Positions 18,458 to 53,450 are shown, counted from the stretch's first letter. The stretch: 64,000 nt of DNA from Thermoanaerobaculia bacterium (GCA_044226625.1 JBGAGQ010000009.1:1-64000); one strand, 5' to 3'. Made by a program: numbers and translations. The notes: a model not told the origin generated them from the letters alone.

Positions 18458-18466
18458 CCTTTATCC

Positions 18467-22531: not shown

Positions 22532-22611
22532 TCATTTGCGCGGCGACCACTGGCCCATCCCTTGCAGCCGAGCCCCTCCACCCCGCGATTCGGAATCGCG
22601 GTCTCGACCGC

Positions 22612-28200: not shown

Positions 28201-29251
28201 GCTCGACGGCTCGCCGAGCCGGCTGACGATCGAAGGAAGGCGCTTCCAGGCCGCAAACTCGAAGGAGATCCAGGCGGTGGTCTCGCCGCGGATCCAGGTC
28301 GCCATGCAGGGCTCGAGGGTCGACGTCACCGGGGATGTCGAGGTTCCGAAAGCGAAGTTCGAGCAGGAGAAGAAGAAGCCTGCCGTCGTGCCGGTCTCGA
28401 GCGACGTGGTGATCCTTCCGCCTTCGGAAGAAAAGGTCGAGACGGCATCCTCCGCGCCGCTCGAGATCCATGCCCGGGTCCGCGTCGTCCTCGGCGATCA
28501 GATCGAGATCAAGGCGCTGGGCTTTTCCGGTAAACCCAAGGGGAGCCTGCTGGTGATCGAAGAGCCGGGCAAGGCGACCTCGGCGATCGGCGAGCTGACG
28601 GTTGAGGACGGGGTCTACAAGTCGTACGGCCAGGACCTGAGCCTGGAGCGCGGCCGCCTGATCTTCGCCGGCGGACCGATCGACAACCCGGGTCTCGACT
28701 TGAAGGCGTTCCGCAAAGCCGACGACGGGACGGTCGCGGGAATTAACGTCCGCGGCACGCTGCGCTCTCCGCAAGCCACGCTCTACTCCGAGCCGCCGAT
28801 GGCCGAAAGCGAGGCCCTCGCCTACCTCCTGCTCGGGCACCCGCTCGGCCAGTCGACCGGCGAAGAGGGCAACCTGCTCGCGAACGCCGCCAACAGCCTG
28901 GGGCTCAAAGGCGGCAACCTGCTCGCCAAGAAGCTCGCCGCCCGCTTCGGCCTCGAAGAGGCGCGGATCGAATCGACCGGCGGCATCAAGGAAGCCTCCC
29001 TGGTGGTCGGGAAATACCTCTCGCCGCGCCTCTACGTCACCTACGGCCTCGGCCTCTTCGAGCCGGTCAGTACCTTCCGGATCCGCTACATCCTCGGCCG
29101 GAATTGGTCTCTCCAGGCCGAGCAATCGGGAACCGCGACGGGGGCCGACGCTCTCTACACGGTCGAGCGCGGCAAGGGGCAGAAGACTCCGCAACCGGCC
29201 GACGACCGAGGCGAGCCGGCGAAGGTTCCGACGGAGGGCGGAGGGCGGTAG
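25226..29251 (+). CDS. tamB: Translocation and assembly module TamB
   Basis: GTG overlaps the tamA stop; N-terminal TM anchor, long beta-rich body; C-terminal YGQDL..ERGRLIF.G.IDNPGL, ALAYLLLG and GKYLSPRLYVTY. Confidence 0.93.
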   Translation: MSEPEEPLEEQDAERSEASTPPPPPRKAHRLRRWLLGVLALGLIAIALLACFLWYGVSTERGTRILLGRLSGFVPGTLALGATSGRLIGPLALRDLRYENEGLKVRVQRIDLDWNPGKLRNRQLDVAKLEVDGVRVVLPPPDAKPEPSDGRLVPIHLPVNLIVRDALIRDVEIAQTLGPPAAGKPATPPAAPFRLDRIALDATSERRSDVVHVRSLAVDGPTFSLNARGDLTPVGDYAIGLDVRVLWRDPTHPPFEGVARLNGTLETLGVDARLARPFAASVKGKVLTPMREVGLDLAAHVESFDPRTIDPTYPAARIRRADLAVRGALDDLASNGLVIGSYEGVASGALDYRVTKKGNTIGIERAHFASTRNALIEAHGTIRLAEDPQSTDETRLDLAASWQRLALPLEGAPDGGAPVVVSRAGQGTLRGLLEDYELAAEAELAGPNLPPGRWVVAGHGDTSKMDIRSLRGDLLRGRLTASGQVAWKPEVSWTVKTRGTGLDPSAFSTVAAAKGYPGRIDFSATSSGTLRDAGPFGTVDLEALSGQIRGNPLDGRVHLVLAGDRYRLPRLDLRSGSARLTAAGSFTADVADLEWMLDAPNLSQALPESGGSLVARGHLDGPWATPRVRATAEGRSLVVSTSSVESARLAANVDLRRRGRISIDLDATGVASGPRRVETLRLTGAGTREAHELSLAVAAPQGTLDLALAGGLASTTTWTGTIRRLDLKNDRAGNWGLAQPAALTAGPERAALRDFCWVSGGARLCAQGEWSNGGPWNASGTIYDLPFSLFEPFFPPDLEIAGTTNGTFRGSGSARGEIVADLDLAPGPGEIRYTTSDGEPAAVRFDRGVVRARAGATGLTGHAELTFVDTGNVRADLELPGFNQVGAALDRQPLGGRIVAELSNLALLEAFVPDLSNPKGTLSADLALGGTVAKPTVRGAAQLARGQVDVPEYGLELRQIELTANSPGTGPIAIQGSVRSGDGNLTIAGTAALDGSPSRLTIEGRRFQAANSKEIQAVVSPRIQVAMQGSRVDVTGDVEVPKAKFEQEKKKPAVVPVSSDVVILPPSEEKVETASSAPLEIHARVRVVLGDQIEIKALGFSGKPKGSLLVIEEPGKATSAIGELTVEDGVYKSYGQDLSLERGRLIFAGGPIDNPGLDLKAFRKADDGTVAGINVRGTLRSPQATLYSEPPMAESEALAYLLLGHPLGQSTGEEGNLLANAANSLGLKGGNLLAKKLAARFGLEEARIESTGGIKEASLVVGKYLSPRLYVTYGLGLFEPVSTFRIRYILGRNWSLQAEQSGTATGADALYTVERGKGQKTPQPADDRGEPAKVPTEGGGR

Positions 29252-32880: not shown

Positions 32881-33222
32881 TCAGAGGCCCAGAATGAGCC
32901 TTAGGCCGTTCTCGACCCCCATGAGCAATCGCGAAGGCACCTTCCCAGCAACCTCGGTCAGGAGGCTCTTGTCTACCGCGAGTAGTTGGGAGATGTTCGC
33001 CACCGAGTCGGAGGGAAGACCGGTCATGCTCTTCGGAAGGAAGGTGTTTCCGGGCGCTTCCGCAAGTTCCAACTTCGTCGTGAGCGGCACAGCGAGGACT
33101 GTGCGAAGGCGGCTCGCCGTGAACTCCTCCGCCTGGATGACGATCACCGGCCGGCGATAGCCGGGCTCGGAACCGGAAGGCTCGGGGAGCGAGGCCCACC
33201 AAATCTCACCGCGGCGGATCAC
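32881..33222 (-). CDS. mazF: PemK/MazF family toxin
   Basis: IRRGEIWWA.L....GSEPG.RRPVIVIQ, VPLTT and DSVANISQL motifs; overlaps the antitoxin stop. Confidence 0.95.
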   Translation of the reverse strand: MIRRGEIWWASLPEPSGSEPGYRRPVIVIQAEEFTASRLRTVLAVPLTTKLELAEAPGNTFLPKSMTGLPSDSVANISQLLAVDKSLLTEVAGKVPSRLLMGVENGLRLILGL

Positions 33223-33455
33223 CAAGGGTCTCGCTTGAGAGTCGCGAGCTGCAGAGCTTCCAACACGGGATCCGGGGTCTGGTCGACTCTCTCGTAGACC
33301 TGATTCAGTGCCTCGGTGATTCCCTTCCGCTTCTGTCCATGCAGGAACTCTTGGATGGCTGTCGCATAAAGTTGGCTACGAGAAATGCCTAGCTCTGCCG
33401 CCATTTCCTCGGCGGACTCGAAAAGGGGATCAGGTAGTGAGATGGCAGTCTTCAT
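33219..33455 (-). CDS. ChpI/CopG-type RHH antitoxin
   Basis: MKTAISLPD.LF..AE..A..LGISRSQLY; lies upstream of and overlaps mazF. Confidence 0.9.
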   Translation of the reverse strand: MKTAISLPDPLFESAEEMAAELGISRSQLYATAIQEFLHGQKRKGITEALNQVYERVDQTPDPVLEALQLATLKRDPW

Positions 33456-33461
33456 AGCCTA

Positions 33462-33479
33462 AGTATAACTCGGTCATAC
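33462..33479 (-). promoter_or_regulatory. -10 box (TATACT) overlapped by an inverted repeat, probable antitoxin operator
   Basis: GTATGAC-N3-GTTATAC (one mismatch) on the minus strand; TATACT sits 6 nt before the ATG. Confidence 0.65.
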
Positions 33480-33529
33480 CGCCATGCGCGCCGAGAGCAA
33501 TGCCTCGACGCAGTCCAGTTCCGGCCCTT

Positions 33530-34525
33530 CTAAATCCCCAGCCGGAACCGCCGGCTCCGGAACGCCGGAGAATCCGGGCACAAATCCCCGTCGTCGGAGA
33601 GGACGATCAGCTCGTCGGGGACCGCGGGGTCGAAGAAGATCGCCTCGGGTATGAGGGTACCGAGGTCGATACCGGCGATCGGTTTCGGCTTGTCCTTCGG
33701 CTTGCCCGACCAGCGGAAGAGCTGGAAGGTGCCACCGTCCGCGACCCCTCCTCCACTAATCACGTAGGCTTTCGCGGCCGGCCAGAATTCGAGGCTGCGG
33801 ATTCCCAAGCCTCCGAGGTCGAGCAGGATCGGAGCGCCGAATTTCGGCTTCTTTCCGAACAGCACGTCGCGCGGGTTCTTGAGGGTCGCAATGAGCGCCC
33901 GATTCTGCGGGAGCGGATTGCGGAAGCCGATCAGAAGCTCGCCCTTGGGGGTCGCGGCGAGCCCTTCGAGGTTCAAGCCACCGGACTCGATCGGCTTTCG
34001 CGCCGCAGCTTCCTGAACGTGGAAGGAGGCGTACCGCGAATCTTTGGCGAGATCCTCGATCAACGAGAGGTAGGGCGCTCCGACCGCGGCGAGCGCGTGG
34101 CTTCCGGGGGCCACGGTGACGGCGAACAGTCGGTGGCGGTCGGGGTCTTCCTCACCGCTGTTCTTCCGGCTGTGCGAGCCGACCCAGTAAATCGCGTTGC
34201 CGATCCGCGCGGCTCCTTCGAGGTCCGCTTTCTTCTTGAGGCCGGGCAAGTCGGAGGTCTTGAGGATCTCGGGATCGCCCGGCGAGTCCTTCTTGTAGAT
34301 CCGCAGATCCTTCTGGTCGTCGTCGCCGATGACGAAGAAACCCGGTTCGAGCATCACGACGGCCGAGGGCTCGCAGGTGCCGGGGTATCGGATCTCGATC
34401 TCACCCGGCGGCGCGGGCGCCTGGGCGCGGGCGAGCCCGAACGGGAGCAGGCCGGCCAAAAGGCCGACCATGCCCAGGAGACCCAGGGAACCAGAGGGAA
34501 GGCTCAAGCGGGTTCGAGCGCGCAT
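33530..34525 (-). CDS. Exported DUF3616-like protein
   Basis: Signal peptide ending ARA; CEPSA, DLEGAA, YWVGSHSR, GLNLEGLA, IGFRNP, LDLGGLGIRS and PEA...LSDDG motifs; GGAG RBS before ATG 34525. Confidence 0.8.
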   Translation of the reverse strand: MRARTRLSLPSGSLGLLGMVGLLAGLLPFGLARAQAPAPPGEIEIRYPGTCEPSAVVMLEPGFFVIGDDDQKDLRIYKKDSPGDPEILKTSDLPGLKKKADLEGAARIGNAIYWVGSHSRKNSGEEDPDRHRLFAVTVAPGSHALAAVGAPYLSLIEDLAKDSRYASFHVQEAAARKPIESGGLNLEGLAATPKGELLIGFRNPLPQNRALIATLKNPRDVLFGKKPKFGAPILLDLGGLGIRSLEFWPAAKAYVISGGGVADGGTFQLFRWSGKPKDKPKPIAGIDLGTLIPEAIFFDPAVPDELIVLSDDGDLCPDSPAFRSRRFRLGI

Positions 34526-34671
34526 GTTCGTATCTCCGTCCTGTTTCAAGTTTAGACGGACACCTGAGGAACATACGCGATGTCCGGCGGTCCCGATCCG
34601 TACGCCCTCGGTGCAACGTTTCGGCTACGATGACCGCCTAGAAGCGCAGTAACCTCAATGCGGAGCGGCAC

Positions 34672-35298
34672 TTGAGCGAATCCTCCCTCGATTCCGGCAG
34701 GGATGTTCCCGAAGAGATCACCCAGCTTCTCGAGGTCTGGAAGGGAGGGGACGACCAGGCGCTCGAACGGCTGATTCCGGCCGTCTACCTCGAGCTTCGG
34801 CGGCTCGCCGACCGCCAGTTACAGGGTGAGAAGTCGGGGCACACTCTCCAGCCCACCGCCCTGGTGCACGAGGCATTCATGAAGCTGCGCGGACTGCGCG
34901 ACATCCAGTGGCACGATCGGGCGCATTTCTTCGCCTTTTCCTCGCGGATCATGCGACGCATCCTCGTCGACCACGCGCGCGGCAAGATGGCCGCTAAAAG
35001 AGGGGCCGAATCCCCACATGTGTCGCTGCTCGACGGCGACCTCGGCGGAGGTGCGGTCGAATCGACGCTGTCGGCCGCCGAATTGATCGACCTCGACCGC
35101 TCGCTCGACCGCCTGGCGGCCGAAGAACCGCGCCTCGCCCGCCTGATCGAGGTGCGCTTCTTCGGCGGCCTCACGGTCGAGGAGGCGGCCGAGGTGCTCG
35201 AATGCTCGCCGCGGACGGTGAAACGCGATTGGGCGTTCGCCCGCGCCTGGCTGCTCAAGGACCTCGGAGCGGACGGGTCGGACGCGGCTTCGAAATGA
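34672..35298 (+). CDS. ECF sigma factor of the Ser/Thr-kinase-associated type (TIGR02999-like)
   Basis: ITQLL..W..GD..ALERL.P.VY.ELRRLA, HTLQPTALVHEAF, DRAHFFA, MRRILVDHAR and RTVKRDWAFARAWL motifs; stop overlaps the kinase start. Confidence 0.95.
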   Translation: MSESSLDSGRDVPEEITQLLEVWKGGDDQALERLIPAVYLELRRLADRQLQGEKSGHTLQPTALVHEAFMKLRGLRDIQWHDRAHFFAFSSRIMRRILVDHARGKMAAKRGAESPHVSLLDGDLGGGAVESTLSAAELIDLDRSLDRLAAEEPRLARLIEVRFFGGLTVEEAAEVLECSPRTVKRDWAFARAWLLKDLGADGSDAASK

Positions 35299-38200
35299 CC
35301 GTCGAGGCGCGGTTCGGCAGGCTCCGCGCGGCCTTCGACGTGGTCCTCGACCTGCCCGAGGCCGAGCGGGACGAGGCGATCCGCCAGCTCGCCGGACCCG
35401 ATCTCGCGTTCGAGGCGGAGCTGCGCGAGCTGCTCGCCGCCGCGGAGCGCTCGACCACCCCGCTCGACACCCCGCCGCTCCGCACCTTCCGCGCCGCGGA
35501 GGACCCGCTCGCGATCGAGTCCGCGACCGTCGGGGCGGCGAGCGGAGAGTCGCGCGAGGAGGTCCCGGGCTATCGCCTGCTCCAACCGATCGGGCGCGGC
35601 GGCAGCTCGACCGTCTACCTCGCCGAGCAGCTCGGCCAAGGGTTCACGCGCAAGGTCGCGCTCAAGATCCTGGGCCGCTGGATGGACGCCGCGCTGCTTC
35701 GGCGGTTCCGGGCCGAGCAGCGGATCCTCGCCGGGCTCGAGCACCCGGGCATTGCCCGCCTCTACGACGCGGGGATCACTCCGACTGGGCGCCCCTATCT
35801 CGCGATGGAATGGGTGCGCGGCACGAACCTGCTGGAGCACTGCGCCGCCTCGGGCGCCTCGACGCGCGAGCGGATCGTCCTCTTCGTCGCGGTGCTCGAG
35901 GCGGTCGCGCACGCCCACGCCTCGTCGGTCGTCCATCGCGATCTCAAGCCGGGCAACATCCTGGTCTCCGAGCGGGGCGAGCCGAAGCTGCTCGACTTCG
36001 GCATCGCGCGGCTGCTCGCGGTCGATCGGGAAGGCGCCGAAGGAGAGCCTGGCGACCCGACCGAGACGCGCCACCGCGCGATGACGCCCGCTTACGCAAG
36101 CCCCGAGCAGGTGCGCGGCGATTCGGTCGACCGCGCCTCGGACATCTATTCGCTCGGCATCGTGCTCTACGAGCTGCTGGTCGGCCGGCGTCCCTACCGA
36201 GCCCCGAGCGGGCGGCTGGACGAGCTCGAGCGGGCGATCCGCGAACAGGATCCGGCCCCGACCGGGCTCGGCCTCGATCTGGACGCGATCCTCCAGAAGG
36301 CGATGCGCAAAGAGCCCGAGCTGCGCTATCTCTCGGCGGCCGATTTCGCGGCCGACCTGCTGCGCCATCTCGACGGCCGGCCGGTGCTCGCGCGGCGCGG
36401 CACCTGGCTCTACCGGCTCGGCCGTGAATTCAAGCGACGACGGGGCTTCTGGGCGAACGCGGCGCTCGCGACCGGCGTCGCCGGCGGGCTCGCGCTCTGG
36501 CTGGCCGGAGGGATCCCCGGATCGCGCGGCGCGGCGACCGATCCCAACGCCTCGCCATGGCTCGCGATGCCCGTCGCGAGCGCCGCCGCCGCGAGCTACG
36601 AAGAGGGCCTTCGCCAGCTCTCGCGGCTGGAGCCCACCCGGGCCGCCGCGAGCTTCCGCCGCGCCGTCGCGGCCGATCCCGAGCAGCCGTTGATCCACGC
36701 GGCGCTCGCGACCGCCGAAGGGCGTGCCGGCCGGGACGGTGAGGCCCGAGCCGAAGGGCAGCGTGCGCTCTCGCTGAGCGGCGGCGCGCCGCGCGAAAGC
36801 CGGCTGCTGGTCGAGGCGGTCTCGCTCCGCGCCGCGGGCCAGCGCACCGAAGAGGCGAAGCTACGGCGGGCGCTCTGGCTGCTCCTCCCGAGGAATTTCG
36901 AGGTCGGGTATCTGTTCGCGCAAAGTCTGGCCGAGGGTGGCGCCCAAGAGGAGGCGCTCGAGGTCGCCGCGAAGCTGCGCGCGCTCCCGGAAGGGGGTCG
37001 GGGGGAGGCGGCCGACCTGCGGATCGGTTTGATCGAGCTCGAGGCGCTGAACCTGCTCGGCAGGCCGCAGGAGGTGGCGGACCGCGCCCGGCGCCTCGCC
37101 GACCAGGCGAACCGGCGGGGGCTTCAGGCGATCGCCGCCGCGGCGCGCCTGGAGGAGAGCCAGGCGGGTGACGGGCTCGGCCGGACCGATCTCACGCGCT
37201 CCGCCGCGAACGAGGCGCGCCGGCTTTCGGCCGCGGCCGGCGAGGCGAACGGAGTCGCCCGCGCGGTGATGTACGAGTGCATGGCCCTGTTTCGCGAATC
37301 GCGCCACGAGCAGGTCGAGGCGACGTGCGCCGAGGCGATCCGCCTCTTCGAGCGGATCGGCAGCTCGAGCGGCGTCGCCCGCTCGCTCGGCATCCTCGGC
37401 GCGAGCCGCCAGCGCCAAGGGCTCATCCACGAGGCGCGCGAAACCTTCGCCCAAGCGCTCGACCTCGAAACGAGAAACCACCTGGGGGACCTGCCGAGCC
37501 AGGTGCGCTACCAGCACAACCTCGCGAACCTCGACAGCGACCTCGGCCGGCTGCCCGAGGCGGAAGAGGGCTTTCGCCGCGCGATCTCTACGCTGCGCGA
37601 GATCGGCAACGAGATCGGGTTGGTGCGGGCGCTCGGCGCGCTCTCGGTGGTGCTGATGAAACGCGGCTCGCTCGACGAGGCGAAGACCCTCCTCGGCGAG
37701 GCGGAGCGGCTGGAGCGGACGATCGGCTCTCCCCGCGAGCTCGGTTACACCCAGTGGCTCTGCGGCGACCTCGCGAACCTGCGCGGGGAGACCGCGGAAG
37801 CCGAGGCCTGGTACGCGCGGGCCGCGACCCATTTCGCGGGCATCCAGGAGGCGGACCTGGTCGCCCGGTTCCAGACCTCCCGAAAGCAGCTCGCGGAGCC
37901 TTCCCCCCGCCTCTGCCGCGACCTCGAACGCTCCGCGGACGAGCTGTCGCGGCTCGGCGATCGCAGCGCCACCGAGCTCGCCGCCGCGATCTCGCGCTGC
38001 TGGAGCGACTCGGGCTCGCCGAAGGAGGCGGCGCGTTGGCTCGATCGCGCCGACGACCAGGCAAATTCGACCGAGCTGCCGGAGGTACGGGTCGATCTCG
38101 AGCTCGCCCGCGCGAGTCTCGCCATGGAAGTGCGGCATTGGGCCGACGCGGAGCGGATCCTCGACCGAGCCGCCGAAGACTGCCGGCGCGGCGCGCTCGG

Positions 38201-38756
38201 CACGCTCCTCCTGGAGATTCGCCTGGAGCAGGCCCGACTCGCGCTCGCCCGCGGCGATCACCCGGAGCGGGTTCGGACGCTCGCCGAAGAGCTGGTCCGC
38301 GACGCCGAGGCGGGGCACTTCGGCAAGATCGCCCGGAAGGCGAAAGAGATCCTCGCCGTACCGCGCTTGGCCCGGTGGGAGCGCCCCCACCTCGATCCTC
38401 CCCCGCAAGCGGGGGAGGACGAAGCCCGTTCGGAGGGTCTACTCTCCGCCCAACGCGCTCGGGCGTCGATTACCCCTCAGCGAAGCGCCCCCCCTTCCGC
38501 GAGCGGAGGAGGTGGCACCTTGCGTCCCTCCCCCCGCTTGCGGGGGGCGGTTAGGAGGGGGGCTGCTGCCACTAGCAGCGCCCTCGCCGCGCCGCAGCGC
38601 CCCTACCTCGATCCTCCCCCGCAAGCGGGGGAGGAGGAAGCCCGTTTGGAGGGTCCACTCTCCGTCCAACGCGCTCGGGAGTCGATTACCCCTCAGCGAA
38701 GCGTCCCTCCCCCCGCGAGCGGGGGGAGGCCAGGAGGGGGGCCGCGATGCTTCTAG
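35295..38756 (+). CDS. Membrane Ser/Thr protein kinase-TPR receptor 1 (C-terminus extended through REP-like repeats)
   Basis: ATGA overlap with the sigma gene; N-terminal helical extension; GRGGSSTVY, VALK, HRDLKPGN, DFG, YASPEQ; TM; TPR-like repeats. Confidence 0.92.
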   Translation: MTVEARFGRLRAAFDVVLDLPEAERDEAIRQLAGPDLAFEAELRELLAAAERSTTPLDTPPLRTFRAAEDPLAIESATVGAASGESREEVPGYRLLQPIGRGGSSTVYLAEQLGQGFTRKVALKILGRWMDAALLRRFRAEQRILAGLEHPGIARLYDAGITPTGRPYLAMEWVRGTNLLEHCAASGASTRERIVLFVAVLEAVAHAHASSVVHRDLKPGNILVSERGEPKLLDFGIARLLAVDREGAEGEPGDPTETRHRAMTPAYASPEQVRGDSVDRASDIYSLGIVLYELLVGRRPYRAPSGRLDELERAIREQDPAPTGLGLDLDAILQKAMRKEPELRYLSAADFAADLLRHLDGRPVLARRGTWLYRLGREFKRRRGFWANAALATGVAGGLALWLAGGIPGSRGAATDPNASPWLAMPVASAAAASYEEGLRQLSRLEPTRAAASFRRAVAADPEQPLIHAALATAEGRAGRDGEARAEGQRALSLSGGAPRESRLLVEAVSLRAAGQRTEEAKLRRALWLLLPRNFEVGYLFAQSLAEGGAQEEALEVAAKLRALPEGGRGEAADLRIGLIELEALNLLGRPQEVADRARRLADQANRRGLQAIAAAARLEESQAGDGLGRTDLTRSAANEARRLSAAAGEANGVARAVMYECMALFRESRHEQVEATCAEAIRLFERIGSSSGVARSLGILGASRQRQGLIHEARETFAQALDLETRNHLGDLPSQVRYQHNLANLDSDLGRLPEAEEGFRRAISTLREIGNEIGLVRALGALSVVLMKRGSLDEAKTLLGEAERLERTIGSPRELGYTQWLCGDLANLRGETAEAEAWYARAATHFAGIQEADLVARFQTSRKQLAEPSPRLCRDLERSADELSRLGDRSATELAAAISRCWSDSGSPKEAARWLDRADDQANSTELPEVRVDLELARASLAMEVRHWADAERILDRAAEDCRRGALGTLLLEIRLEQARLALARGDHPERVRTLAEELVRDAEAGHFGKIARKAKEILAVPRLARWERPHLDPPPQAGEDEARSEGLLSAQRARASITPQRSAPPSASGGGGTLRPSPRLRGAVRRGAAATSSALAAPQRPYLDPPPQAGEEEARLEGPLSVQRARESITPQRSVPPPASGGRPGGGPRCF
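38385..38742. repeat. Two tandem composite REP-like palindromic elements (216-bp period)
   Basis: CCTCCCCCGCAAGCGGGGGAGG hairpins at 38397 and 38613, each followed by a conserved spacer and a related inverted hairpin (about 38526 and 38705). Confidence 0.9.
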
Positions 38757-41632
38757 CTTCCCCTCTCGAGCCGCACCCCGAGCCGTCGCTCGAGGAGATC
38801 CCCGGGTACCGTCGGTTCGAGCGGATCGGCCGCGGCGGCAGCGCTACCGTCTACCGCGCCGAGCAGGAGGGAAACGGCTTCCTGCGCCCCGTCGCTCTCA
38901 AGGTGATCGACCTCTTCGCCGACGCCTCCCGACTGCGCCGGTTCGAGGCCGAAAAGCGCATCCTCGCCGCACTCGAGCACCCCGGAATCGCCCGCCTGTA
39001 CGAGGCCGGGGTCACCTCGGCCGGTCGGCCTTACCTGGCGATGGAGCTGGTACGCGGCGACGACCTGCTCGAGCACTGCCGACGGACCAACGCTTCGACG
39101 CGCGATCGGATCGCGCTGTTCCTGCTCGTCCTCGACGCGGTCGAGCACGCCCATCGGGCGTCGATCGTCCATCGGGATCTCAAGCCGGGCAACGTCCTGG
39201 TCTCCGAGCATGGGGCACCGAAGCTGCTCGACTTCGGCATCGCCCGTCTGCTGGCGCCCGACGAGACCGGCGAAGGAACCGCGCCCCCCGACCCGACGGA
39301 GACCCGACGCCTGCCGTTCACCCCCGCCTACGCGAGCCCCGAGCAGGTCGCGGGAGGCCGGGTCGATCGAGCCTCCGACCTCTATTCACTCGGCGTCGTC
39401 CTCTACGAGATGCTCGCGGGAAGGCGCCCCTATCGCCTCGAAGACGATCGCTTGGCGACGCTCGAGCGGGCGATCCTCGAGCAGGTGCCCGAATCGGCAG
39501 CGCTCGGCCGCGACCTCGACGCAATCCTTCGAAAGGCGCTCGAAAAGGAACCGGCCGACCGCTACGCCTCGGCCGCCGAGCTCGCCACCGACCTGCGCCG
39601 CCACCTCGACGGGAAGCCGGTTCTCGCGCGCCGCGTCTCGCCGCTCGGGCGCTGGGCTCGAGAAGTCGCGCGGCGGCCCGCCCGGGCGATCGCGGCGGTT
39701 CTCCTCGCGCTTCTCGCCGGCGCGCTCGTCCGGTTCGGCCTCGGCACCCAGCCCGCGGAGCGAATCGACGCCGGGCGCCCCGACCCCACCGCTTCGCCGT
39801 TTCTTGCTCTGCCGGTCGCCCCCGCGGCGCTCGCCGATTTTCGCGCCGGGCTCGACGCGCTCGCGCGCCTGGAAACGAAAGCGGCGATCGCGCGGCTCCG
39901 CAAGGCGGTCGCCGCCGATCCCTCCCAACCGCTGATCCACGCCGCACTCGCCACCGCTCACGCGCGGGCTGGGCACGATTTCCTGGCGCGTGGCGAGGGG
40001 AGGAGAGCCCTCGAGCTCGCCCCGGCGGAGCCGCGGGAGAGCCGGCTGCTCGCCGAGGCGACGGCGTTCCAGACCTCCGGCGAAAAGGAGCAGGAGATCG
40101 AACGGCGGCGCGCCCTCTGGGTTCTTGCGCCTACGAATTTCGAGGCCGGGTTCCTGCTCGCGAAGAGCCTCAACGAGACCGGCGGAGGGGAGGAGGCGAT
40201 GACGGTGATCGGCCGGCTGCGAACCACTCCCCCCGGCAAGAGACCGCTCGACGACCTGCGCCTCGGCCTGCTCGAAGGGGAGGCGCTCAACCAGCTCGGG
40301 CGGCCGGCCGAGAACGACGCGGTGTCGGAAAAGGTGATGGCCGCCGCGACGCCGCGCAGCCTGCCGATCGTCGCGGCGATGGGACTCCTGAACCGGGCCC
40401 TCGCCCACGATGCCCTCGCCGTGAACAGCAAGACACAGGCGTTCGCGGCGCAAGCCGAGCGGATGTTCCTCACGCACGGGGAAGCATGGGGCGCCGTCCG
40501 AGCGGCGAATGTCCAGTGCGGCGCCGCGATCCACGACGGCCGGCCGCTCGACGCCGAGCGGGCCTGCCATCGAGCGATCCGAGCCGCCGAGAGCATCGGC
40601 AGCGCGACCTCCATGGCGCGCGGGTTCATGAACCTCGCGATTTCCCAGCGCCTGCGCGGCAACGTCCTCGAAGCGAGAAATACGCTGGCTCGCGCGCTCG
40701 AGATCGAGCGCAACGGCCCGCTCAAGGACCGGATCGCCCTCGGCCGCTATCTGTTCAACCTGGCGAGCCTCGACTCCGACCTCGGCCGGCTGCCCGAGGG
40801 GGAAGAAGAATTCCGGCAGGCCATCGAGCTGCTGCGAGAGGGCGGCAACAAGTTCAGCCTGATGCGGAACTTGAGCGCTCTCGGCCAGATCCTGATCTAT
40901 AGGGGCGCGCTCGAGCAGGCGGCTGCCGCCCTCGACGAGGCCCATCTCCTCGCCCAATCCGTCGGCTCGGACACCGAGCGCGGCCAGATCCTTTGGCGCC
41001 AGGCGGACGTCGCCAAGCTCGAAGGGGACCTGCCGCGCGCGCGGCGTCTGTTCGACCAAGCGGCGGTCGAGTTCGCGAACGCCGAGACCCAGGACATCGT
41101 GGGGCCGTTCCGCGTCTCGCGCCTTCAGATCGAAGTCCCGTCCGAGAAAGCTTGCCGTGCCCTGGAAGCGTCGTCTCCGGAGCTCGCGCGGACCGGCATC
41201 GAGGCCCTGAACGAGCTCGCCGTCGCGATCTCGCGCTGCTGGAGCGACGCGGGGTTTCCGAGCCGCGCCCGGCGTTGGCTCGACCGCTCGGGCACCGAGG
41301 CGGCGAATTCCGAAATCCCGGCGATCCGGGTCGACTACCTGCTCGCCCGCGCCTCGGTCGCGCTCGGCGCGAAACGCTGGGACGAAGCGGGCCAGGATCT
41401 TCGGACGGCCGAGGACCTGTGCCGGAAGTCGTCGCTCGGCAGCCAGCTGATGGAGGTCCGCCTCGTGTCCGCGCGCCTCGCGCTCGCCCGCGGCGAGCAT
41501 CCCGAGCGCGTTCGAACGCTCGCCGAGGAGCTGCGCAGCGACGCCTCGGCGGCGCGGTTCGGGACCATCGCGCGCGAGGCGGGCCTTCTCCTCGATGCGC
41601 AGCTGGACGCGCGGCGCCACGGTCGCCGATAG
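38747..41632 (+). CDS. Membrane Ser/Thr protein kinase-TPR receptor 2
   Basis: GRGGSATVY, VALK, HRDLKPGN, DFG, YASPEQ; TM; TPR-like region colinear with its paralogues. Confidence 0.93.
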   Translation: MLLASPLEPHPEPSLEEIPGYRRFERIGRGGSATVYRAEQEGNGFLRPVALKVIDLFADASRLRRFEAEKRILAALEHPGIARLYEAGVTSAGRPYLAMELVRGDDLLEHCRRTNASTRDRIALFLLVLDAVEHAHRASIVHRDLKPGNVLVSEHGAPKLLDFGIARLLAPDETGEGTAPPDPTETRRLPFTPAYASPEQVAGGRVDRASDLYSLGVVLYEMLAGRRPYRLEDDRLATLERAILEQVPESAALGRDLDAILRKALEKEPADRYASAAELATDLRRHLDGKPVLARRVSPLGRWAREVARRPARAIAAVLLALLAGALVRFGLGTQPAERIDAGRPDPTASPFLALPVAPAALADFRAGLDALARLETKAAIARLRKAVAADPSQPLIHAALATAHARAGHDFLARGEGRRALELAPAEPRESRLLAEATAFQTSGEKEQEIERRRALWVLAPTNFEAGFLLAKSLNETGGGEEAMTVIGRLRTTPPGKRPLDDLRLGLLEGEALNQLGRPAENDAVSEKVMAAATPRSLPIVAAMGLLNRALAHDALAVNSKTQAFAAQAERMFLTHGEAWGAVRAANVQCGAAIHDGRPLDAERACHRAIRAAESIGSATSMARGFMNLAISQRLRGNVLEARNTLARALEIERNGPLKDRIALGRYLFNLASLDSDLGRLPEGEEEFRQAIELLREGGNKFSLMRNLSALGQILIYRGALEQAAAALDEAHLLAQSVGSDTERGQILWRQADVAKLEGDLPRARRLFDQAAVEFANAETQDIVGPFRVSRLQIEVPSEKACRALEASSPELARTGIEALNELAVAISRCWSDAGFPSRARRWLDRSGTEAANSEIPAIRVDYLLARASVALGAKRWDEAGQDLRTAEDLCRKSSLGSQLMEVRLVSARLALARGEHPERVRTLAEELRSDASAARFGTIAREAGLLLDAQLDARRHGRR

Positions 41633-41646
41633 CGGGAGGAACTCCG

Positions 41647-44553
41647 ATGCCCGTCGCCTCCATCCCCGAAGAAGTCGCCGACGAGACGCTCGGCACGATT
41701 GCCGGCTACCGCCTGTTCGAGCCGATCGGCCGCGGCGGCAGCGCCACCGTCTACCGCGCCGAGCAGCGGGGCGACGGTTTCCTCCGGCCGGTCGCCTTGA
41801 AGATCATCGACCGCTTCGCCGACGCGCCGCGGCTGCGCCGCTTCGACGCCGAAAAGCGCATCCTCGCCGCGCTCGAGCACCCGGGAATCGCGCGCCTGTA
41901 CGACGCAGGTTTCACCTCGACCGGCCGGCCCTACCTCGCGATGGAGCTCGTGCGCGGCAGCGATCTCCTCGAGCACTGCCGGCGGACGGGCGCCTCGACG
42001 CGCGAGCGGATCGCCCTGTTCCTGCTCGTCCTCGACGCGGTCGAGCACGCTCACCGCGCTTCGGTCGTCCACCGCGATCTGAAACCGGGAAACGTCGTGG
42101 TCTCCGAGCAGTCGACGCCGAAGCTCCTCGACTTCGGCATCGCCCGCCTGCTTTCGAGCGAGGAGACGACCGGCGGCGGCACGATCGACACCACCGACAC
42201 GGCGGCGCCGGAGGCCCATCCGACGGAGACCCGGCTTTCGCCGTGGACCCCTTCCTACGCGAGCCCCGAGCAGGTCGCGGGCGACAAGGTCGACCGCGCC
42301 ACCGACCTCTATTCGCTGGGCGTCGTCATCTACGAGTTGCTCACCGGACGCCGGCCCTACCGCCTGGCCGACGACCGCCTGGAAACCCTCGAACGAGCGA
42401 TCCGCGAACAGCCGCCGGAACCGCCCGGTCTCGGCCGCGAGCTGGATTCGATCCTCGCCAAAGCGCTCGAAAAACGCCCGGCCGACCGCTACCTTTCGGC
42501 CGCCGATTTCGCCGCGGATCTGCGGCGTCATCTCGAAGGGCGGCCGATCTTCGCTCGGCCCGTCTCGCAGTTCGGGCGCCTCGGCGTCGCGCTCCGCCGC
42601 CGTGGAGCCTCGTCCGCCGTCCTCTCGCTGCTCCTGGTCGTGGCGCTCGTCGCGCTCGCCGCGCTGCTCGGCGGCCCCTCGTTCCGCCGCGCTCGCGAGA
42701 CGTCGGGGCCGGCCGATCCGGCGGCCTCTCCGTTCCTCGCCCTGCCCGTCGCCGCACCGGCGCAGGCGGATTTCGCGGCGGGGCTCGACGCGCTCGCGCG
42801 GTTCGAGACCCGGCGGGCGGTCGCGCGCCTCCGTGCGGCGGCCGACGCCGACCCCGACCAGCCGCTGATCCGCGCCGCGCTCGCGACCGCCCACTCCCGC
42901 GCGGGTCACGACTACCTGGCCCGCGCCGAAGGGCGACGGGCGTTGGACCTCGCGCCGGCCGAGCCGCGCGAAAGCCGCCTGCTCGCCGAGGCGACGGCAC
43001 TCCAGACCTCCGGCGACAAGGCGCGGGAGCTCGAACGGCGCCGCTCGCTCTGGGTCCTCTCGCCGACCCGATTCGAGGCCGGCTATCTGCTCGCGAAGAG
43101 CTTGAACGACGGCGGCACGGCGGACGAGGCGCTCGAGGTGGTCGCCCGGCTGCGCGCCCTGCCGGCCGGCCGCGTCTCGCCGAACGACCTGCGGCTCGGC
43201 CTGCTCGAAGCCGAGGCGCTCAACCAGCTGGGGCGCCCCGCCGACGCCGCGCGCGCGGCTTCGACGGTCGCCGGCGAAGCGATGCGACGGCGCCTGTCCG
43301 CGCTCGCCGCGAACGCCCTTCTACTCGAAAGCCTGGCTCAGGACGGCCTGGGAGCCACCGAGGCCATGGACGCGCTCGCCGTACGGGCGCACCGCCTGTT
43401 CGTACCTCTCGGCGAAACCTGGGGCGTCGCCCGGGCGCTCAACCTACGGTGTATCGCCCGCGTGCGCGATTCGCGCGCCGAGGAGGCCGAGAGGATCTGC
43501 GGCGACTGCATCCGTATGGCCGAACGGGCGGGCAGCGCCACGACCGCCGCTCGCGGGCTCGCGAATCTGGGCATGTCGCGGCGCCACGCGGGGCGCATCG
43601 CCGAGGCCCGGGCTCTCTACGTCCGGGCGATCGAGACCGAGGCGCGCGGACCGCTCCGCGACCGGATGAGCCAGGCGCGCTACCTCCACAACCTGGCGAA
43701 TCTCGACTCCGACCTCGGGCACCTACCGCAGGCGGAGGAGGGGTACCGGAAGTCGGCCGTGATCCTGCGCGAGGCGGGCAATCGCCTCAGCCTGCTGCGC
43801 TCGCTGAACGCGCTCGCCGCGGTGCTCATGTACCGCGGATCGCTCGCCGAAGTGGAAAGCGTTCTCGCCGAGGCCTCCGCCCTCGCGGGATCGGCCGGAT
43901 CGGCCCGAGACCGCGGCATCGTCCTCTGGCGCCGGGGGGATCTCGCCAAGCTCGAAGGCGACCTGCCGCTCGCCCGTAGCCTTTACGACCAGGCGGCGGG
44001 CGAGCTGGCGTCGAACGCTCCCGCGGCGATCGCCGCGCCGTTCGAAGCGTCGCGGAAGCAGCTCGCGCCCTCGTCCGAACGGGCTTGCCGCGACCTCGAG
44101 TCGTCGCACGCCGAGTTGGTTCGGCTCGAAGATCGGGCGGAGAACGAGCTCGCGATCGGCATCGCGCGCTGCTACGACGAGGCCGGATTCCCGCGCCGCG
44201 CCCAGGTCTGGCTCGACCGCGCGGCACCCGGCGCCGCGAGCTCCCAGCTCCCCGCGATCCGGACCGAATTCGAGCTCGTCCGCGCCGCGCTCGCCTTGAA
44301 GGGGCGGCGCTTCGACGAGGCGGACCGAGTGCTGACCGCGGCCACCGCCGCTTGCCGCGAGTTCTCCCTCGGCACCCAGCTCATGGAGGTCCGCCTGCTC
44401 TCCGCGCGTTTGGCTCTGCAACGGGGCGAGCATCCCGAGCGGGTCCGGACGCTCGCCGAAGAGCTCCTACGCGACGCCGAGGCGGGGCGCTTCGGCAAGG
44501 CCGCCCGGGGGGCCCGGGAGATCCTCGCCGCGCCCCGCCTCGCGCGGGGGTGA
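41647..44553 (+). CDS. Membrane Ser/Thr protein kinase-TPR receptor 3
   Basis: GGAGGA RBS then ATG 41647; same kinase motifs, TM and TPR-like region. Confidence 0.93.
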   Translation: MPVASIPEEVADETLGTIAGYRLFEPIGRGGSATVYRAEQRGDGFLRPVALKIIDRFADAPRLRRFDAEKRILAALEHPGIARLYDAGFTSTGRPYLAMELVRGSDLLEHCRRTGASTRERIALFLLVLDAVEHAHRASVVHRDLKPGNVVVSEQSTPKLLDFGIARLLSSEETTGGGTIDTTDTAAPEAHPTETRLSPWTPSYASPEQVAGDKVDRATDLYSLGVVIYELLTGRRPYRLADDRLETLERAIREQPPEPPGLGRELDSILAKALEKRPADRYLSAADFAADLRRHLEGRPIFARPVSQFGRLGVALRRRGASSAVLSLLLVVALVALAALLGGPSFRRARETSGPADPAASPFLALPVAAPAQADFAAGLDALARFETRRAVARLRAAADADPDQPLIRAALATAHSRAGHDYLARAEGRRALDLAPAEPRESRLLAEATALQTSGDKARELERRRSLWVLSPTRFEAGYLLAKSLNDGGTADEALEVVARLRALPAGRVSPNDLRLGLLEAEALNQLGRPADAARAASTVAGEAMRRRLSALAANALLLESLAQDGLGATEAMDALAVRAHRLFVPLGETWGVARALNLRCIARVRDSRAEEAERICGDCIRMAERAGSATTAARGLANLGMSRRHAGRIAEARALYVRAIETEARGPLRDRMSQARYLHNLANLDSDLGHLPQAEEGYRKSAVILREAGNRLSLLRSLNALAAVLMYRGSLAEVESVLAEASALAGSAGSARDRGIVLWRRGDLAKLEGDLPLARSLYDQAAGELASNAPAAIAAPFEASRKQLAPSSERACRDLESSHAELVRLEDRAENELAIGIARCYDEAGFPRRAQVWLDRAAPGAASSQLPAIRTEFELVRAALALKGRRFDEADRVLTAATAACREFSLGTQLMEVRLLSARLALQRGEHPERVRTLAEELLRDAEAGRFGKAARGAREILAAPRLARG

Positions 44554-44575
44554 CCGGCGGGAGGGCGGGCCGCCG

Positions 44576-46009
44576 TTAGAGCGGTCCGAAAGCGAACAGG
44601 ATCGACTTGTCGTTGATCTGGGACACCGCGTAGAGGCGCCCGTCGACGGTCAAGGCGGGGTGCGCGTTGTGGAACTCCTGGATCGTGAGCGCGTGCGTCA
44701 GGCTCTGCAGGTCGTGCTCGAAGATTCCCAGCTCGTCGAGGTTCGGCACGACCACCTCGTTCGCGCTCGCCGCCAGGCCGGCCGCGAGACCGAGCACGGG
44801 ATAGGGCTGGGGACGAAGCGTCGACGTGAGCTCCTTGGTCCCCGGCTTGAGGAAATGCACCGCGTGATCCGCCGGCACGATCCAGGCGTCCCCGGCGAGC
44901 GCGGGCGGGTTCATCACCGGCTCGCCCGCGTCGTAAGTCGCCTTGAGCGAGAACGAGGCGAGATCGTAGATCCGGACCCGGTGGCAGCTCGCGCCGAAGA
45001 CGACCAGGCCTTCCGGCGTGACCGTCGGGCTCGAGAGCCGCACGCCGTCGGCCTCCGCGCGATCGCCCCAGCGCTTGACTAGGCGACCCGGAACCGTCGC
45101 GGCCGCCGGGTCGAACTGGAGCACCTCGAGACGCGACCGGCAGTGATGATCGGTCAAGGCGACCAGCGGCGCGGTCGGGGTCGAAAAACCGTGGAGCGGC
45201 GTGTCGAGGATCGCCGGCGTCGACTCCGTCGGCCAGCCGTAGGTCTCGAACAGGGGCCCGCTTGCCATGGCCTCGAGCCCGCCCGCGTCCTTCGCCCGGC
45301 TCGCGCTCTTCCGGAAGGCGCCGCCGCCGTGGAGGTCGATGCACCCCTCGCCCACCGGGTGGCGGGCGAAGATCTGGCCCGCCCCGTCGAACACCACCAG
45401 CTCATGGAAGGAGTACGGCGCGAAGGAGAGGTCCCAGTTGGAGAACGCCACGTGGACGAAGACGAACGACTGACCGTCGAGCGTCCAGACCTTCGGCGAG
45501 CCGGACGACTTGCTCGGATTCCTGAACATGGTCGGCAGGTCGACCTGCCACACCGTCGTGCAGTTCGGGGCGACCCGGACGAGAGCGGTCTGATCGTGGG
45601 TATCGGTCGGCCGCGTCACCAGAAGCGCCACGTCGCCGTTCGGAAACATTGCGGGGACCGAGAGGATATGGGCCGATTTGAAGTTCCGGCTGCACTGCAC
45701 GTCGCCGTTCGGCCGGAACGCCCAGAGCGTGCCGGTTTCCGTCCCGACGTAGATCGTGCCCGCGACCGGGTCGACGATCGGGCCTCCCGCGCCGACGTTG
45801 CCGTCGAGTTGGTACGCCCAGTTGGCGACCACCGGAACCTTGGTGAACGAGTTGACGAAGCTCGTGTTCGAGAGATTTCCGTACGCCTGGTCCCACCCGG
45901 CCGCGGCGCGGGACGGCACGGCGCCCCCCATCCAAGCGACGACGCCCGCCAGAACGGCGTGGACCAACGCCCCGCGAAGCCCGCGGTTCCCACTCCCACG
46001 TGGACTCAT
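44576..46009 (-). CDS. Exported PQQ-like beta-propeller repeat protein
   Basis: AAGGAG RBS; signal peptide; WDQAYGN..NT, IYVGTETGTLWAF..NG, SSP and HPAL..DG.LY repeats. Confidence 0.8.
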   Translation of the reverse strand: MSPRGSGNRGLRGALVHAVLAGVVAWMGGAVPSRAAAGWDQAYGNLSNTSFVNSFTKVPVVANWAYQLDGNVGAGGPIVDPVAGTIYVGTETGTLWAFRPNGDVQCSRNFKSAHILSVPAMFPNGDVALLVTRPTDTHDQTALVRVAPNCTTVWQVDLPTMFRNPSKSSGSPKVWTLDGQSFVFVHVAFSNWDLSFAPYSFHELVVFDGAGQIFARHPVGEGCIDLHGGGAFRKSASRAKDAGGLEAMASGPLFETYGWPTESTPAILDTPLHGFSTPTAPLVALTDHHCRSRLEVLQFDPAAATVPGRLVKRWGDRAEADGVRLSSPTVTPEGLVVFGASCHRVRIYDLASFSLKATYDAGEPVMNPPALAGDAWIVPADHAVHFLKPGTKELTSTLRPQPYPVLGLAAGLAASANEVVVPNLDELGIFEHDLQSLTHALTIQEFHNAHPALTVDGRLYAVSQINDKSILFAFGPL

Positions 46010-46094
46010 GACCCTCTCCTTTCGGATTCGTACCGTGACGACGGGAGAGGCGGAAAAACCCGGAGTCCGGGGCCAGGCGGGGGCGCCCCGAGCC

Positions 46095-46592
46095 CTACTT
46101 GCCCGATCTCTTCTTGAACGACCAGGTGAACGCGAACCGCGCGGCGACCGTGCCGTCCGGCAGGCGTCCGATCGTCTCCGCACGCACGGTCTGCGGCTCG
46201 CCGGTCTCGATCGCCTGGGCGACCGCGGTGGCGATTTGCGGACCGGCGTCGCAGGTGAAGGTCAACCGGGCGCTCGCCTTCTTTTCGAACGCCGCTTCGA
46301 GACCGACGATCAGAAGGGCGACCGGCGCTTTCGATACCTCGATCGCCGCCATCGCGAGCGCGCCGGTCGAGAGCTCCGCCGCCATCGCCTGGGCCGCGAA
46401 GTAGATTGAGCGGAACGGGTTGGTCGACCGCCAGCCGTACGGGAGCGAGACGACGCATCGCTCGGTCGAGATCTCGTCGATCCGCAACCCCGCGAACAGG
46501 GCGAGCGGCAGCTTCGAGAGGAAATAGAGCCGCATCAGGAACCGCGAGCGGGCCTGGCGGAGGAACTTCGAATCGTTCGTCGTCGGAGGCAT
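46095..46592 (-). CDS. Hotdog-fold thioesterase-like protein (DUF4442-like)
   Basis: KLPLA.FAGLRI, NPFRSIYFAAQAMAAELSTG and F.KKA....FTC motifs. Confidence 0.85.
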   Translation of the reverse strand: MPPTTNDSKFLRQARSRFLMRLYFLSKLPLALFAGLRIDEISTERCVVSLPYGWRSTNPFRSIYFAAQAMAAELSTGALAMAAIEVSKAPVALLIVGLEAAFEKKASARLTFTCDAGPQIATAVAQAIETGEPQTVRAETIGRLPDGTVAARFAFTWSFKKRSGK

Positions 46593-46889
46593 GAGGCGAT
46601 GGATCTTACCGGACGCCGCGGCCCGCACCGCGCGACCGCCGACCGCTCGGCGCCGTCACTTCGAGAGAGCGGTCACCGCTCCTCATCCTCCTCACGCCAG
46701 TTACGAGACCGACGGAAGCGACCCGACGGTCTCGCGTATCGACGCCTGGGACGCGGTTCCCTCCGCGCTCGACCGCGGAGGGAATCCCCAGGTCTCGCGA
46801 CGCGCCGCGAAGCTACCGCGCACGAAGACCCCGGCGCCGCGCTCCGGTGCCGCGCGACGGCGCCCTCCTCCTTCAACGTGACGCTTCCC

Positions 46890-47230
46890 TTCCGCAACAC
46901 GAGGTACGAATCACGGGACAAGACGAATTATCGACGAGACACGATGCACCAGTTCGTAGACACGATGCACCGCTTCCGCAACACGAGGCAGCGGTGCTGC
47001 ATCGGAACGTTTCGCGACAAAGCCGAGGAGAAGGCCTTCCGGGCGTCGGCGGAATCGTTCTGGGAGCCATTAAAGAGGTGCGCGAGCTCTCGGCAGCGAA
47101 TCCTCGCGTTCCGTCATCGGTCCCTTGCGGTGCGTTCCGAACGTTGTGATCCATGGGACCTCTCATCTGCGTTGCGAGACCGGTGCGTAGCGTGATTGCA
47201 CCGGTGCGCAGCGTCTCGTCGCCGGTAACC
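46890..47230. repeat. Degenerate 21-bp-periodic repeat tract
   Basis: ACACGA at 46939/46960/46981; TTCCGCAACACGAGG at 46890/46974 (84 bp apart); CCGGT at 47180/47201/47222. Confidence 0.6.
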
Positions 47231-53396: not shown

Positions 53397-53450
53397 CTCG
53401 CATAAAGGCTCAAGGGCCGGGGCGAGCTCTGGGATCCGCGAGATCCACGG

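Follow-up and report, generated by a model that had tools for sequence, protein, structure and literature searches.

The 64,000-nt stretch of DNA analysed here, hereafter the window, comes from a soil-type, Thermoanaerobaculia-like acidobacterium (Acidobacteriota) and carries on its + strand, at 34672-44553, a gene for an extracytoplasmic function (ECF) sigma factor followed by the genes of three receptor kinases, K1, K2 and K3. We tentatively propose that K1 is the cognate kinase of this sigma factor and that K2 and K3 are maintained accessory receptors coupled to it indirectly, an arrangement that we rate as quite possible, if somewhat short of an even chance. A previous sequence-only reading of the window had considered the block as a multi-input array acting on one sigma factor. 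A single sigma gene and three intact kinase genes on the same strand are indeed present, but K2 and K3 are devoid of an N-terminal extension (N-ext) that K1 possesses. Since a match to N-ext is found directly upstream of 80 of the 86 kinase domains in the window and 79 related loci, direct wiring of K2 and K3 to the sigma factor is doubtful. The locus is composed of the following elements:

33530-34549, - strand: gene of the DUF3616 family (PF12275), 339 aa
34613-34638, + strand: promoter-like motif GCAAC GTTT ... CGCC, ~35 nt upstream of the TTG start of the sigma gene, conserved at orthologous loci
34672-35298, + strand: ECF43-like sigma gene (TIGR02999 / Sigma70_ECF), 208 aa, TTG start
35295-38756, + strand: receptor kinase K1, with N-ext at residues 1-62, Pkinase domain at 93-345, transmembrane (TM) helix at ~389-407, an ectodomain of tetratricopeptide repeats (TPR) and a 125-aa read-through tail
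35295-35480, + strand: N-ext of K1, a predicted three-helix N-terminal domain (66.1 bits with the N-ext hidden Markov model)
38380-38745, + strand: duplicated GC-rich hairpin element, two copies, between the K1 body and the start of K2
38747-41632, + strand: receptor kinase K2, 961 aa, without N-ext; kinase domain from residue 21, TM helix near residue 314
41647-44553, + strand: receptor kinase K3, 968 aa, without N-ext; TM helix near residue 324
44576-46009, - strand: gene of a BamB/PQQ-like beta-propeller, 477 aa, convergent with K3

K1 has ~85 residues before its kinase domain, including the ~60-aa N-ext, while K2 and K3 begin 20 residues before theirs. Over the whole window, the hidden Markov model of N-ext gives a single match, the one in K1, and a search of all six frames upstream of K2 and K3 revealed no remnant at E ≤ 1e-3. 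For comparison, relatives of the sigma factor were scanned in one genome per species; of the 599 stretches matched, 438 encode such a relative, the best 80 of which make up the 79 loci used here (designated below by L numbers). These all belong to metagenome-assembled genomes, for the most part of Thermoanaerobaculia and further Acidobacteriota, Gemmatimonadota, Planctomycetota and Steroidobacteraceae. Where a kinase follows the sigma gene, 165-315 nt nearly always separate the sigma stop from the start of the kinase domain, and the peptides encoded in this interval align to one conserved ~55-aa pattern. Besides K2 and K3, the six kinase domains without an N-ext match comprise two unrelated kinases that are not sigma-adjacent (L017, L025) and two whose N-ext is divergent or partial (L023, L038). 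Of 34 fetched kinase relatives, 31 start with N-ext, two (P0016 and P0018, on ~5-kb contigs) start at the kinase domain, and one, P0006, is without N-ext.

Arrays of several kinases behind one sigma gene are rare. Among the 56 loci outside the window with at least 7 kb of downstream sequence, one kinase stands in line at 45, none at 8, two at 2 (L002, L067) and three at one (L001). Multi-kinase arrays thus occur at 3 of 56 comparable loci, and three-kinase arrays are not routine, a point on which the sequence-only reading had depended. The extra kinases of L001 (two), L002 (one) and L067 (one; Terriglobia) all carry N-ext. Four loci, L001-L004, are true orthologous loci, with sigma factors 87-90% identical and SPFH, DUF4442 and BTRD1 flanks 85-92% identical to those of the window; the copy-number comparison proposed by the earlier reading gives three, two, one and one kinases there, respectively. 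More distant loci, L005 (sigma 78% identical; contig ending ~0.5 kb after the kinase) and L006 (76%), have one kinase each. The three-kinase array of L001 is equally tight, with a 22-nt gap and an ATGA overlap. When the window is compared with L001-L004, the propeller is 64-66% identical (closest copy), the kinase domains 73-76% and the ectodomains 47-61% (best tblastn segment). Identities of 47-76% for kinases and propeller as against 85-92% for sigma and flanks therefore indicate that the sensory components diverge much faster than their surroundings.

A different layout was observed in L012, L023, L038 and L055, where two sigma genes lie in tandem on the same strand. Each is followed by a kinase in L023 and L038; the contig of L012 breaks off within the second kinase, and in L055 the second sigma gene precedes only a 46-aa N-ext fragment. 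Such a layout gives each kinase its own sigma factor, unlike several kinases behind a single one. Tandem duplication of Ser/Thr kinases has been reported in Myxobacteria and Planctomycetota (PMC11032199), and paralog expansion of kinases and ECF sigma factors in Solibacter (PMC3174227). An ECF43 sigma factor with several kinases is not described in the literature searched, whose coverage does not extend to Iyer et al. 2020, which may bear on the question.

No family in the Pfam copy used matches N-ext. Its profile matches residues 3-78 of PDB entry 9EED with an E-value of 5.3e-10; this entry corresponds to PknS(1-364) of Xanthomonas, and N-ext is homologous to the N-terminal segment of that kinase. 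According to PMC13147305, the N-terminal segment of PknS comprises 83 aa, is invisible in the crystal and has no known function, and a function for the N-terminal segment of PknS-type kinases was likewise not found in the literature searched, where Iyer et al. 2020, outside its coverage, may again bear. K1 possesses the N-terminal extension of PknS/PknT-type kinases and K2 and K3 do not; K1 is a member of the PknS-type family, and K2 and K3 are truncated derivatives of it. An AlphaFold2 model of N-ext contains helices at residues 3-18, 22-33 and 37-53, with a confidence (pLDDT) of at least 90 over residues 1-50. A relation to anti-sigma-like domains was considered and is not supported, the structure of RskA (4nqw_B) appearing only at rank 36 of the Foldseek matches (E 3.4).

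Among 1.84 billion representative proteins, the N-ext profile gave 68,850 matches at E ≤ 1e-3 and 14,616 at E ≤ 1e-10. Pfam domains were searched in 51 of the best 150 of these proteins. In all 34 of the scanned proteins with at least 400 aa, a Pkinase domain comes right after N-ext, and the sensor domains are varied (TPR, PD40/WD40, FGE-sulfatase, guanylate cyclase); the 17 shorter ones show a partial Pkinase (10), nothing (6) or a sub-threshold PDZ (1). Because of this large number of proteins and the constant position directly before the kinase domain in the 34 long matches, N-ext, absent from the Pfam copy used, is likely to define a major class of Ser/Thr kinases in bacteria. Some N-ext proteins carry two or three tandem copies, and one of 1156 aa (P0121) has 10 matched stretches before its kinase domain. 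At a Gemmatimonas-like locus (L045, 10619-10891, + strand), a TIGR02999-type sigma gene is followed by a stand-alone 91-aa N-ext open reading frame (ORF), and the next 10 kb downstream contain no kinase domain; this ORF could be either a remnant or a free N-ext protein.

What N-ext could do is suggested by its distribution. In 60 sigma-kinase pairs, the distances of sigma and N-ext remain correlated when the kinase domain is accounted for (partial r 0.55, permutation p 0.001), and those of N-ext and kinase domain do not when sigma is accounted for (partial r -0.01). Since N-ext is near-universal in the sigma-anchored loci, keeps a constant position before the kinase domain and shows this correlation, we infer that it acts as the module coupling kinases to their sigma factor.

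K1, K2 and K3 share the same architecture down to a common C-terminal motif, as the sequence-only reading had recognized. Each of them matches Pkinase (138.6-146.3 bits) and TPR_12/TPR_MalT, carries one strong hydrophobic helix 3' of the kinase domain (residue 389 in K1, 314 in K2, 324 in K3) and ends in a TPR ectodomain of ~600 aa. The motifs GRGGS, VALK, HRDLKPGN, DFG, PTETR and SPEQ are found in all three, and the C-terminal motif RLAL.RG.HPERVRTLAEEL..DA is invariant in their alignment. This arrangement suggests a topology with the kinase inside and the TPR region outside, in the periplasm. The proteins are collinear, K1-K2 being 53%, K1-K3 56% and K2-K3 62-63% identical. The observation that the kinase domains are close and the TPR regions more diverged holds: for the pairs K1-K2, K1-K3 and K2-K3, identity amounts to 68, 69 and 79% in the kinase domain and to 48, 53 and 58% in the ectodomain (59-66% at the DNA level). 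Two parts of the ectodomain are conserved, one directly adjoining the membrane helix and the other formed by the C-terminal ~50 residues, and the middle drops to 32-58% identity in a sliding window. The ratio of nonsynonymous to synonymous divergence (dN/dS), whose comparison between the two parts had also been suggested, is 0.23-0.37 for the kinase domains and 0.44-0.65 for the ectodomains (for K2-K3, 0.23-0.27 and 0.44-0.45), dS among the copies being ~0.55-0.8; the copies are therefore old and the ratios inflated by saturation, which is near at dS > 0.6. K2 and K3 are intact, under purifying selection and selectively maintained.

This pattern bears on the possibility that K1, K2 and K3 each phosphorylate the sigma factor directly, so that three periplasmic cues would converge on its residue T62, the predicted phospho-acceptor described below, and/or on linker sites. 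One sigma gene followed by three same-strand kinases with intact motifs fits such a parallel array, and kinase domains kept more alike than sensors are expected for a shared substrate. Furthermore, the authors of PMC13147305 describe EcfK as phosphorylated at several sites and consider a possible integration of inputs. On the other hand, the likeness of kinase domains within one genome may reflect gene conversion, and the extension missing from K2 and K3 is seen at 80 of the 86 kinase domains, including every extra kinase of the three other arrays. For L001, L002 and L067, where every kinase keeps N-ext, parallel input is plausible; for the window we consider it doubtful, albeit a serious candidate.

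In assigning these genes, third-position GC and family matches were used as guides, the window being GC-rich (62-74% in 2-kb steps) and long spurious ORFs common. The TIGR02999-type sigma gene overlaps K1 as the sequence-only reading had it, its TGA stop and the K1 ATG (35295) forming ATGA, and appears to be translationally coupled to K1. Between the K2 stop and the K3 ATG there is a gap of 14 nt, with a GGGAGG ribosome-binding site 7 nt before the ATG; K2 and K3 each have their own ribosome-binding site. Since the genes overlap or are separated by only 14 nt and no terminator-like site was found on the + strand within 34672-44553, the sigma gene and K1, K2 and K3 are probably co-transcribed as an operon. 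The statement that kinases 2 and 3 follow tightly holds for the passage from K2 to K3, whereas K2 follows K1 tightly only by virtue of an open K1 frame that crosses a peculiar hairpin element.

Indeed, K3 ends in ARG followed by its stop codon, and K1, without a stop at the same place, runs on for 125 codons through this element. It occupies ~370 nt of the open K1 frame and consists of two copies of ~130-190 nt spaced by 216 nt, which share 92% identity over 130 nt and each contain perfect 10-bp hairpins; its RNA fold reaches a z-score of -4.2. The GC contents at the three codon positions are.71/.78/.71, compared with.78/.52/.90 in the K1 body, and the element seems non-coding-like. The AGGAGG ribosome-binding site of K2 lies inside the second copy, and the element occupies the spot where the second kinase of L001 has its N-ext. 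Neither a known RNA (no Rfam match at gathering threshold over the whole window) nor a dispersed repeat (no further copy in either the window or the 79 loci, no report by Tandem Repeats Finder) could be recognized in it; it may stabilise, attenuate or do neither. A likeness of the K1 5' region to 20302-20354, a stretch in the lipid A acyltransferase gene, was rejected as chance.

The lost stop of K1, which thereby reads into non-coding-like sequence, and the fact that the relatives of the window assembly are all metagenome-assembled genomes could suggest that K2 and K3 are decaying duplicates or that the triple array is a mis-assembled repeated gene. However, the copies are only 53-63% identical in protein and 59-66% in ectodomain DNA, too diverged for an assembly duplication or collapse, and three kinases also lie in a row at this locus in an independent genome, L001. 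Decay is contradicted by the K2 and K3 frames, open over 961 and 968 codons with a high third-position GC (0.81-0.85), by the intact catalytic motifs and by dN/dS below 1. This explanation is largely refuted, and we give it very little probability.

To trace the history of the array, a maximum-likelihood tree of 18 kinases, aligned from the kinase-domain start to the end and rooted on more distant pairs, was inferred. K2 and K3 are sisters (support 100/100), and the sigma-adjacent kinases of L001-L004 form the sister group of this pair (100/99). The third kinase of L001 and the second of L002 form a separate lineage (100/100), while the placement of K1, of the first kinases of L005 and L006 and of the second kinase of L001 is not settled by this tree. 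Trees of the ectodomain only agree with it, and a quick tree of 41 sequences recovers the same three lineages, with P0006 in the clade of K2, K3 and the sigma-adjacent group in an order that is not settled. The tree of kinase domains only is poorly resolved and joins the second and third kinases of L001 with the second of L002 despite ectodomains of different lineages, which hints at gene conversion. A clade of K1, K2 and K3 is rejected by the approximately unbiased (AU) test (p 0.0045, log-likelihood difference 33.2). The split between K1 and K2/K3 therefore predates these species, and the array is not a simple local triplication, its earlier description as tandemly expanded being too simple. 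K1 belongs to another old lineage than K2 and K3, which are a lineage-specific duplication of a copy without N-ext. L001 holds sensor lineages alpha, beta and gamma; the window holds K1, placed loosely within the alpha+beta group, and two alpha copies without N-ext. These trees point to birth-and-death evolution of the kinases of the locus, with one to three copies per genome and several old sensor lineages.

The sigma factor itself scores 216.6 bits with TIGR02999 (cut-off 126.15) and 186.4 bits with PF07638 (Sigma70_ECF; cut-off 21.1). Its residues 60-63 are QPTA, in place of the acidic motif of sigma-2.2. The position of T62 is T in 66 of 67 aligned sigma factors and S in one, and that of T58 is T in 61 of 67. 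A Pfam scan of neighbouring ORFs revealed no anti-sigma domain. In the ECF43 entry, the single Pfam domain Sigma70_ECF replaces the r2 + r4 pair and a kinase with TM and TPR stands at position +1 (PMC7826278 supplement); an S/T motif with a conserved Thr (consensus QTTA) replaces the acidic DAED/DxxD motif of sigma-2.2 in this group (PMC13147305; the motif is defined also in PMC8999054). The window sigma shows the same features at sequence level: the Sigma70_ECF type, the S/T motif instead of the acidic one, a TM-TPR kinase at +1 and no anti-sigma domain nearby. The group as delimited by Casas-Pastor in 2021 is reportedly limited to Proteobacteria, and Iyer in 2020 is said to have widened it. 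As judged by family profiles and motif, and the host being an acidobacterium, membership would hold only in the expanded sense. Because the phosphorylation switch is transferred from EcfP and EcfK, T62 is a predicted phospho-acceptor, and the sigma factor is presumably inactive until T62 is phosphorylated.

Upstream of the sigma gene, at 34560-34671 and in L001-L005, a conserved block G(G/C)AACGTTT(T/C)GG(A/C)TACGAT...CGCC precedes a GGAG that is likewise conserved and the TTG start, whose context is also conserved in L001-L005. The promoter-like motif is identical in register in the window and these five loci, where it occurs only upstream of the sigma gene. It is possibly an autoregulated ECF promoter, the assignment of -10 and -35 being a guess. 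The promoter given for ECF43 has -35 GTC and -10 CAG (PMC7826278 supplement), from which the window consensus differs. A scan of 33000-47000 with the sigma-70 consensus gave 0 sites.

The sequence-only reading had proposed the flanking propeller and DUF3616 genes as regulon or ligand partners of the sigma factor. As members of a regulon they find no support: the conserved promoter-like motif stands upstream of the sigma gene only, and a looser pattern, with 7 matches in the window, has none before either gene. As partners, they differ. The DUF3616 gene, divergent from sigma, matches PF12275 with 42.5 bits (cut-off 20.6), partially, over profile positions 142-266 of 327, and its product has a hydrophobic peak at residue 22. 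Homologs lie 2.2 kb (L001) and 5.7 kb (L004) upstream of sigma with other genes between; the adjacency is window-specific and not conserved in relatives. The propeller, by contrast, has kept its place as a convergent neighbour at L001-L004 and L006, with one copy or two: two in tandem in L002 and L004, one in the window and L003, and at least one in L001, where the locus ends inside it. Its copy number does not track that of the kinases. The propeller, diverging about as fast as the kinases, is a likely periplasmic partner.

Both flanking proteins have an N-terminal hydrophobic, signal-like stretch, as judged from hydrophobicity. The assignment of the DUF3616 gene stands above its Pfam cut-off; that of the PQQ-like propeller rests on other grounds, its best Pfam match, PF13570 (19.5 bits), being below the cut-off of 133, with no NCBIfam match. 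A language-model atlas places the protein at 0.94 with PQQ_2/BamB clusters. A modest AlphaFold2 model (pLDDT 59.8, predicted template-modelling score 0.68) retrieves, with Foldseek, YxaL (E 4e-10) and BamB (E 7e-10 to 1e-9) at TM(target) 0.6-0.75. The protein encoded at 44576-46009 looks BamB/YxaL-like in fold, by which neither PQQ binding nor BamB function is implied.

In the mechanism that we favour, the sigma factor, with QPTA and without the acidic sigma-2.2 patch, would remain inactive until T62 is phosphorylated. K1, with N-ext, a Hanks kinase, one TM helix and a ~600-aa periplasmic TPR superhelix, would be the canonical cognate kinase. K2 and K3 would have lost, with N-ext, the module that couples kinase to sigma, and could sense other periplasmic cues through their diverged sensor middles. 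They would feed in by hetero-oligomerisation with K1 or by trans-phosphorylation of the K1 activation loop, not by docking the sigma factor.

Several observations weigh against this proposal. The correlation of distances is weak evidence, since sigma, as the best proxy of shared phylogeny, could produce it, and N-ext could instead be an autoinhibitory or dimerisation module. Its model retrieved nothing from the PDB at E ≤ 0.001 with Foldseek, the best matches (E 1.5) being generic three-helix bundles. PknS(1-364), which phosphorylates EcfK in vitro, includes the N-terminal segment, so that its activity does not bear on the necessity of the segment (PMC13147305). The relative without N-ext, P0006, has 962 aa and is 57% identical to K2 in the protein search. 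The strongly folding hairpin element could attenuate or separate the expression of K1 and K2, whose co-transcription is itself only predicted. Finally, dN/dS is higher in pairs with window kinases (0.27-0.37) than among L001-L004 orthologs (0.14-0.18), and K2 and K3 stand on long branches (stem 0.26-0.27); both features are compatible with relaxed constraint or changed function.

The same features would be expected if K2 and K3 had left the sigma pathway after the loss of N-ext and had become ordinary receptor Ser/Thr kinases acting on other substrates, still within the operon. Besides the long branches and a dN/dS above that of sigma-adjacent orthologs, this decoupling agrees with the loss of N-ext in both kinases without a remnant in any frame, and with its lack in the two sampled kinases that are not sigma-adjacent (L017, L025). 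Hanks kinases, moreover, commonly have several substrates (PMC13147305). However, K2 and K3 are still tightly packed against the sigma-K1 unit, share with K1 the ectodomain motifs next to the membrane and at the C-terminus, and keep a position beside the conserved propeller, and we consider decoupling unlikely.

The locus resembles two known systems. In EcfK/PknS of Xanthomonas citri, a Sigma70_ECF/TIGR02999 sigma factor likewise has an S/T motif with a conserved Thr and an adjacent kinase gene (PMC13147305). K1 is like PknS in four parts, a ~80-aa N-terminal segment, a Hanks kinase, one TM helix and a periplasmic TPR region (PMC13147305), the first of which is missing from K2 and K3. The systems differ in the number of kinases per sigma (one for EcfK, three in the window, two of them without the N-terminal segment), in the ectodomain (~600 aa of MalT-like TPR in the window, three TPRs in PknS according to PMC13147305), in the sigma motif (QPTA in the window, QATE in EcfK) and in the host (Acidobacteriota in the window, Proteobacteria for EcfK/PknS). 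Unlike in Xanthomonas, no type VI secretion system genes were found among the window ORFs scanned with Pfam; type II secretion system (T2SS), lipopolysaccharide and Tam genes lie elsewhere in the window. In EcfP/PknT of Vibrio parahaemolyticus, an inactive sigma factor is activated by Thr phosphorylation in sigma-2.2 (STTA in EcfP, QPTA in the window) and the transmembrane kinase is adjacent (PMC8999054, PMC13147305). There EcfP has a single kinase; the window has three paralogous kinases and a conserved propeller neighbour. The closest likeness is with the arrays of L001, L002 and L067, each with one TIGR02999 sigma and several tandem kinase-TM-TPR genes, and with the same flanks in L001 and L002. 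They differ in that every kinase carries N-ext and, for L001, in lineage composition.

Convergence of several sensors on one transcriptional output is known from KinA-E and Spo0F in Bacillus and from GacS, RetS and LadS in Pseudomonas. RetS acts by heteromerisation with GacS, not on the regulator itself. In this respect the RetS/GacS pair resembles the role that we propose for K2 and K3; it differs in being made of histidine kinases with response regulators, and no homology is implied.

Elsewhere in the window, a type II secretion-like cluster (6312-15861, - strand) encodes a T2SS E ATPase, a T2SS F protein, a second Secretin_N protein and a 936-aa secretin with N-terminal TPR and a C-terminal cohesin domain, which is unusual on a secretin. 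A generic ECF sigma gene lies at 16420-17109 (- strand), and no kinase or N-ext was found within 16420-29251. This interval contains envelope genes: Kdo transferase, LpxK, lipid A acyltransferase, BrkB-like, TamA-like Omp85 and TamB. The gene at 48644-50662 (- strand) encodes four polyglycine-hydrolase-like BTRD1 repeats together with a beta-lactamase-family domain; L003 and L004 have it near the array as well, 87% conserved. The gene at 53406-56174 (+ strand) encodes a 922-aa CHAT-domain protein.

Sigma activation by Thr phosphorylation has so far been worked out in two proteobacterial pairs of one sigma and one kinase. A module of Acidobacteriota with one to three fast-diversifying receptor kinases is a natural series for studying how Hanks receptors share one sigma factor. 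Within it, K2 and K3 constitute a natural deletion of the N-terminal segment, and their comparison with K1 could show the role of this segment. In a bolder version, which we hold to be rather improbable, N-ext would serve for sigma docking in a very large class of Hanks kinases that has yet to be named. K1 alone would hold and phosphorylate the sigma factor, and K2 and K3 would be ligand-sensing co-receptors that activate K1 by heteromerisation or trans-phosphorylation and evolve by birth and death with their periplasmic propeller partner. If true, bacteria would have in it a counterpart to the receptor/co-receptor kinase pairs of eukaryotes. The practical value lies in annotating and dissecting signalling in abundant, hard-to-culture soil bacteria.

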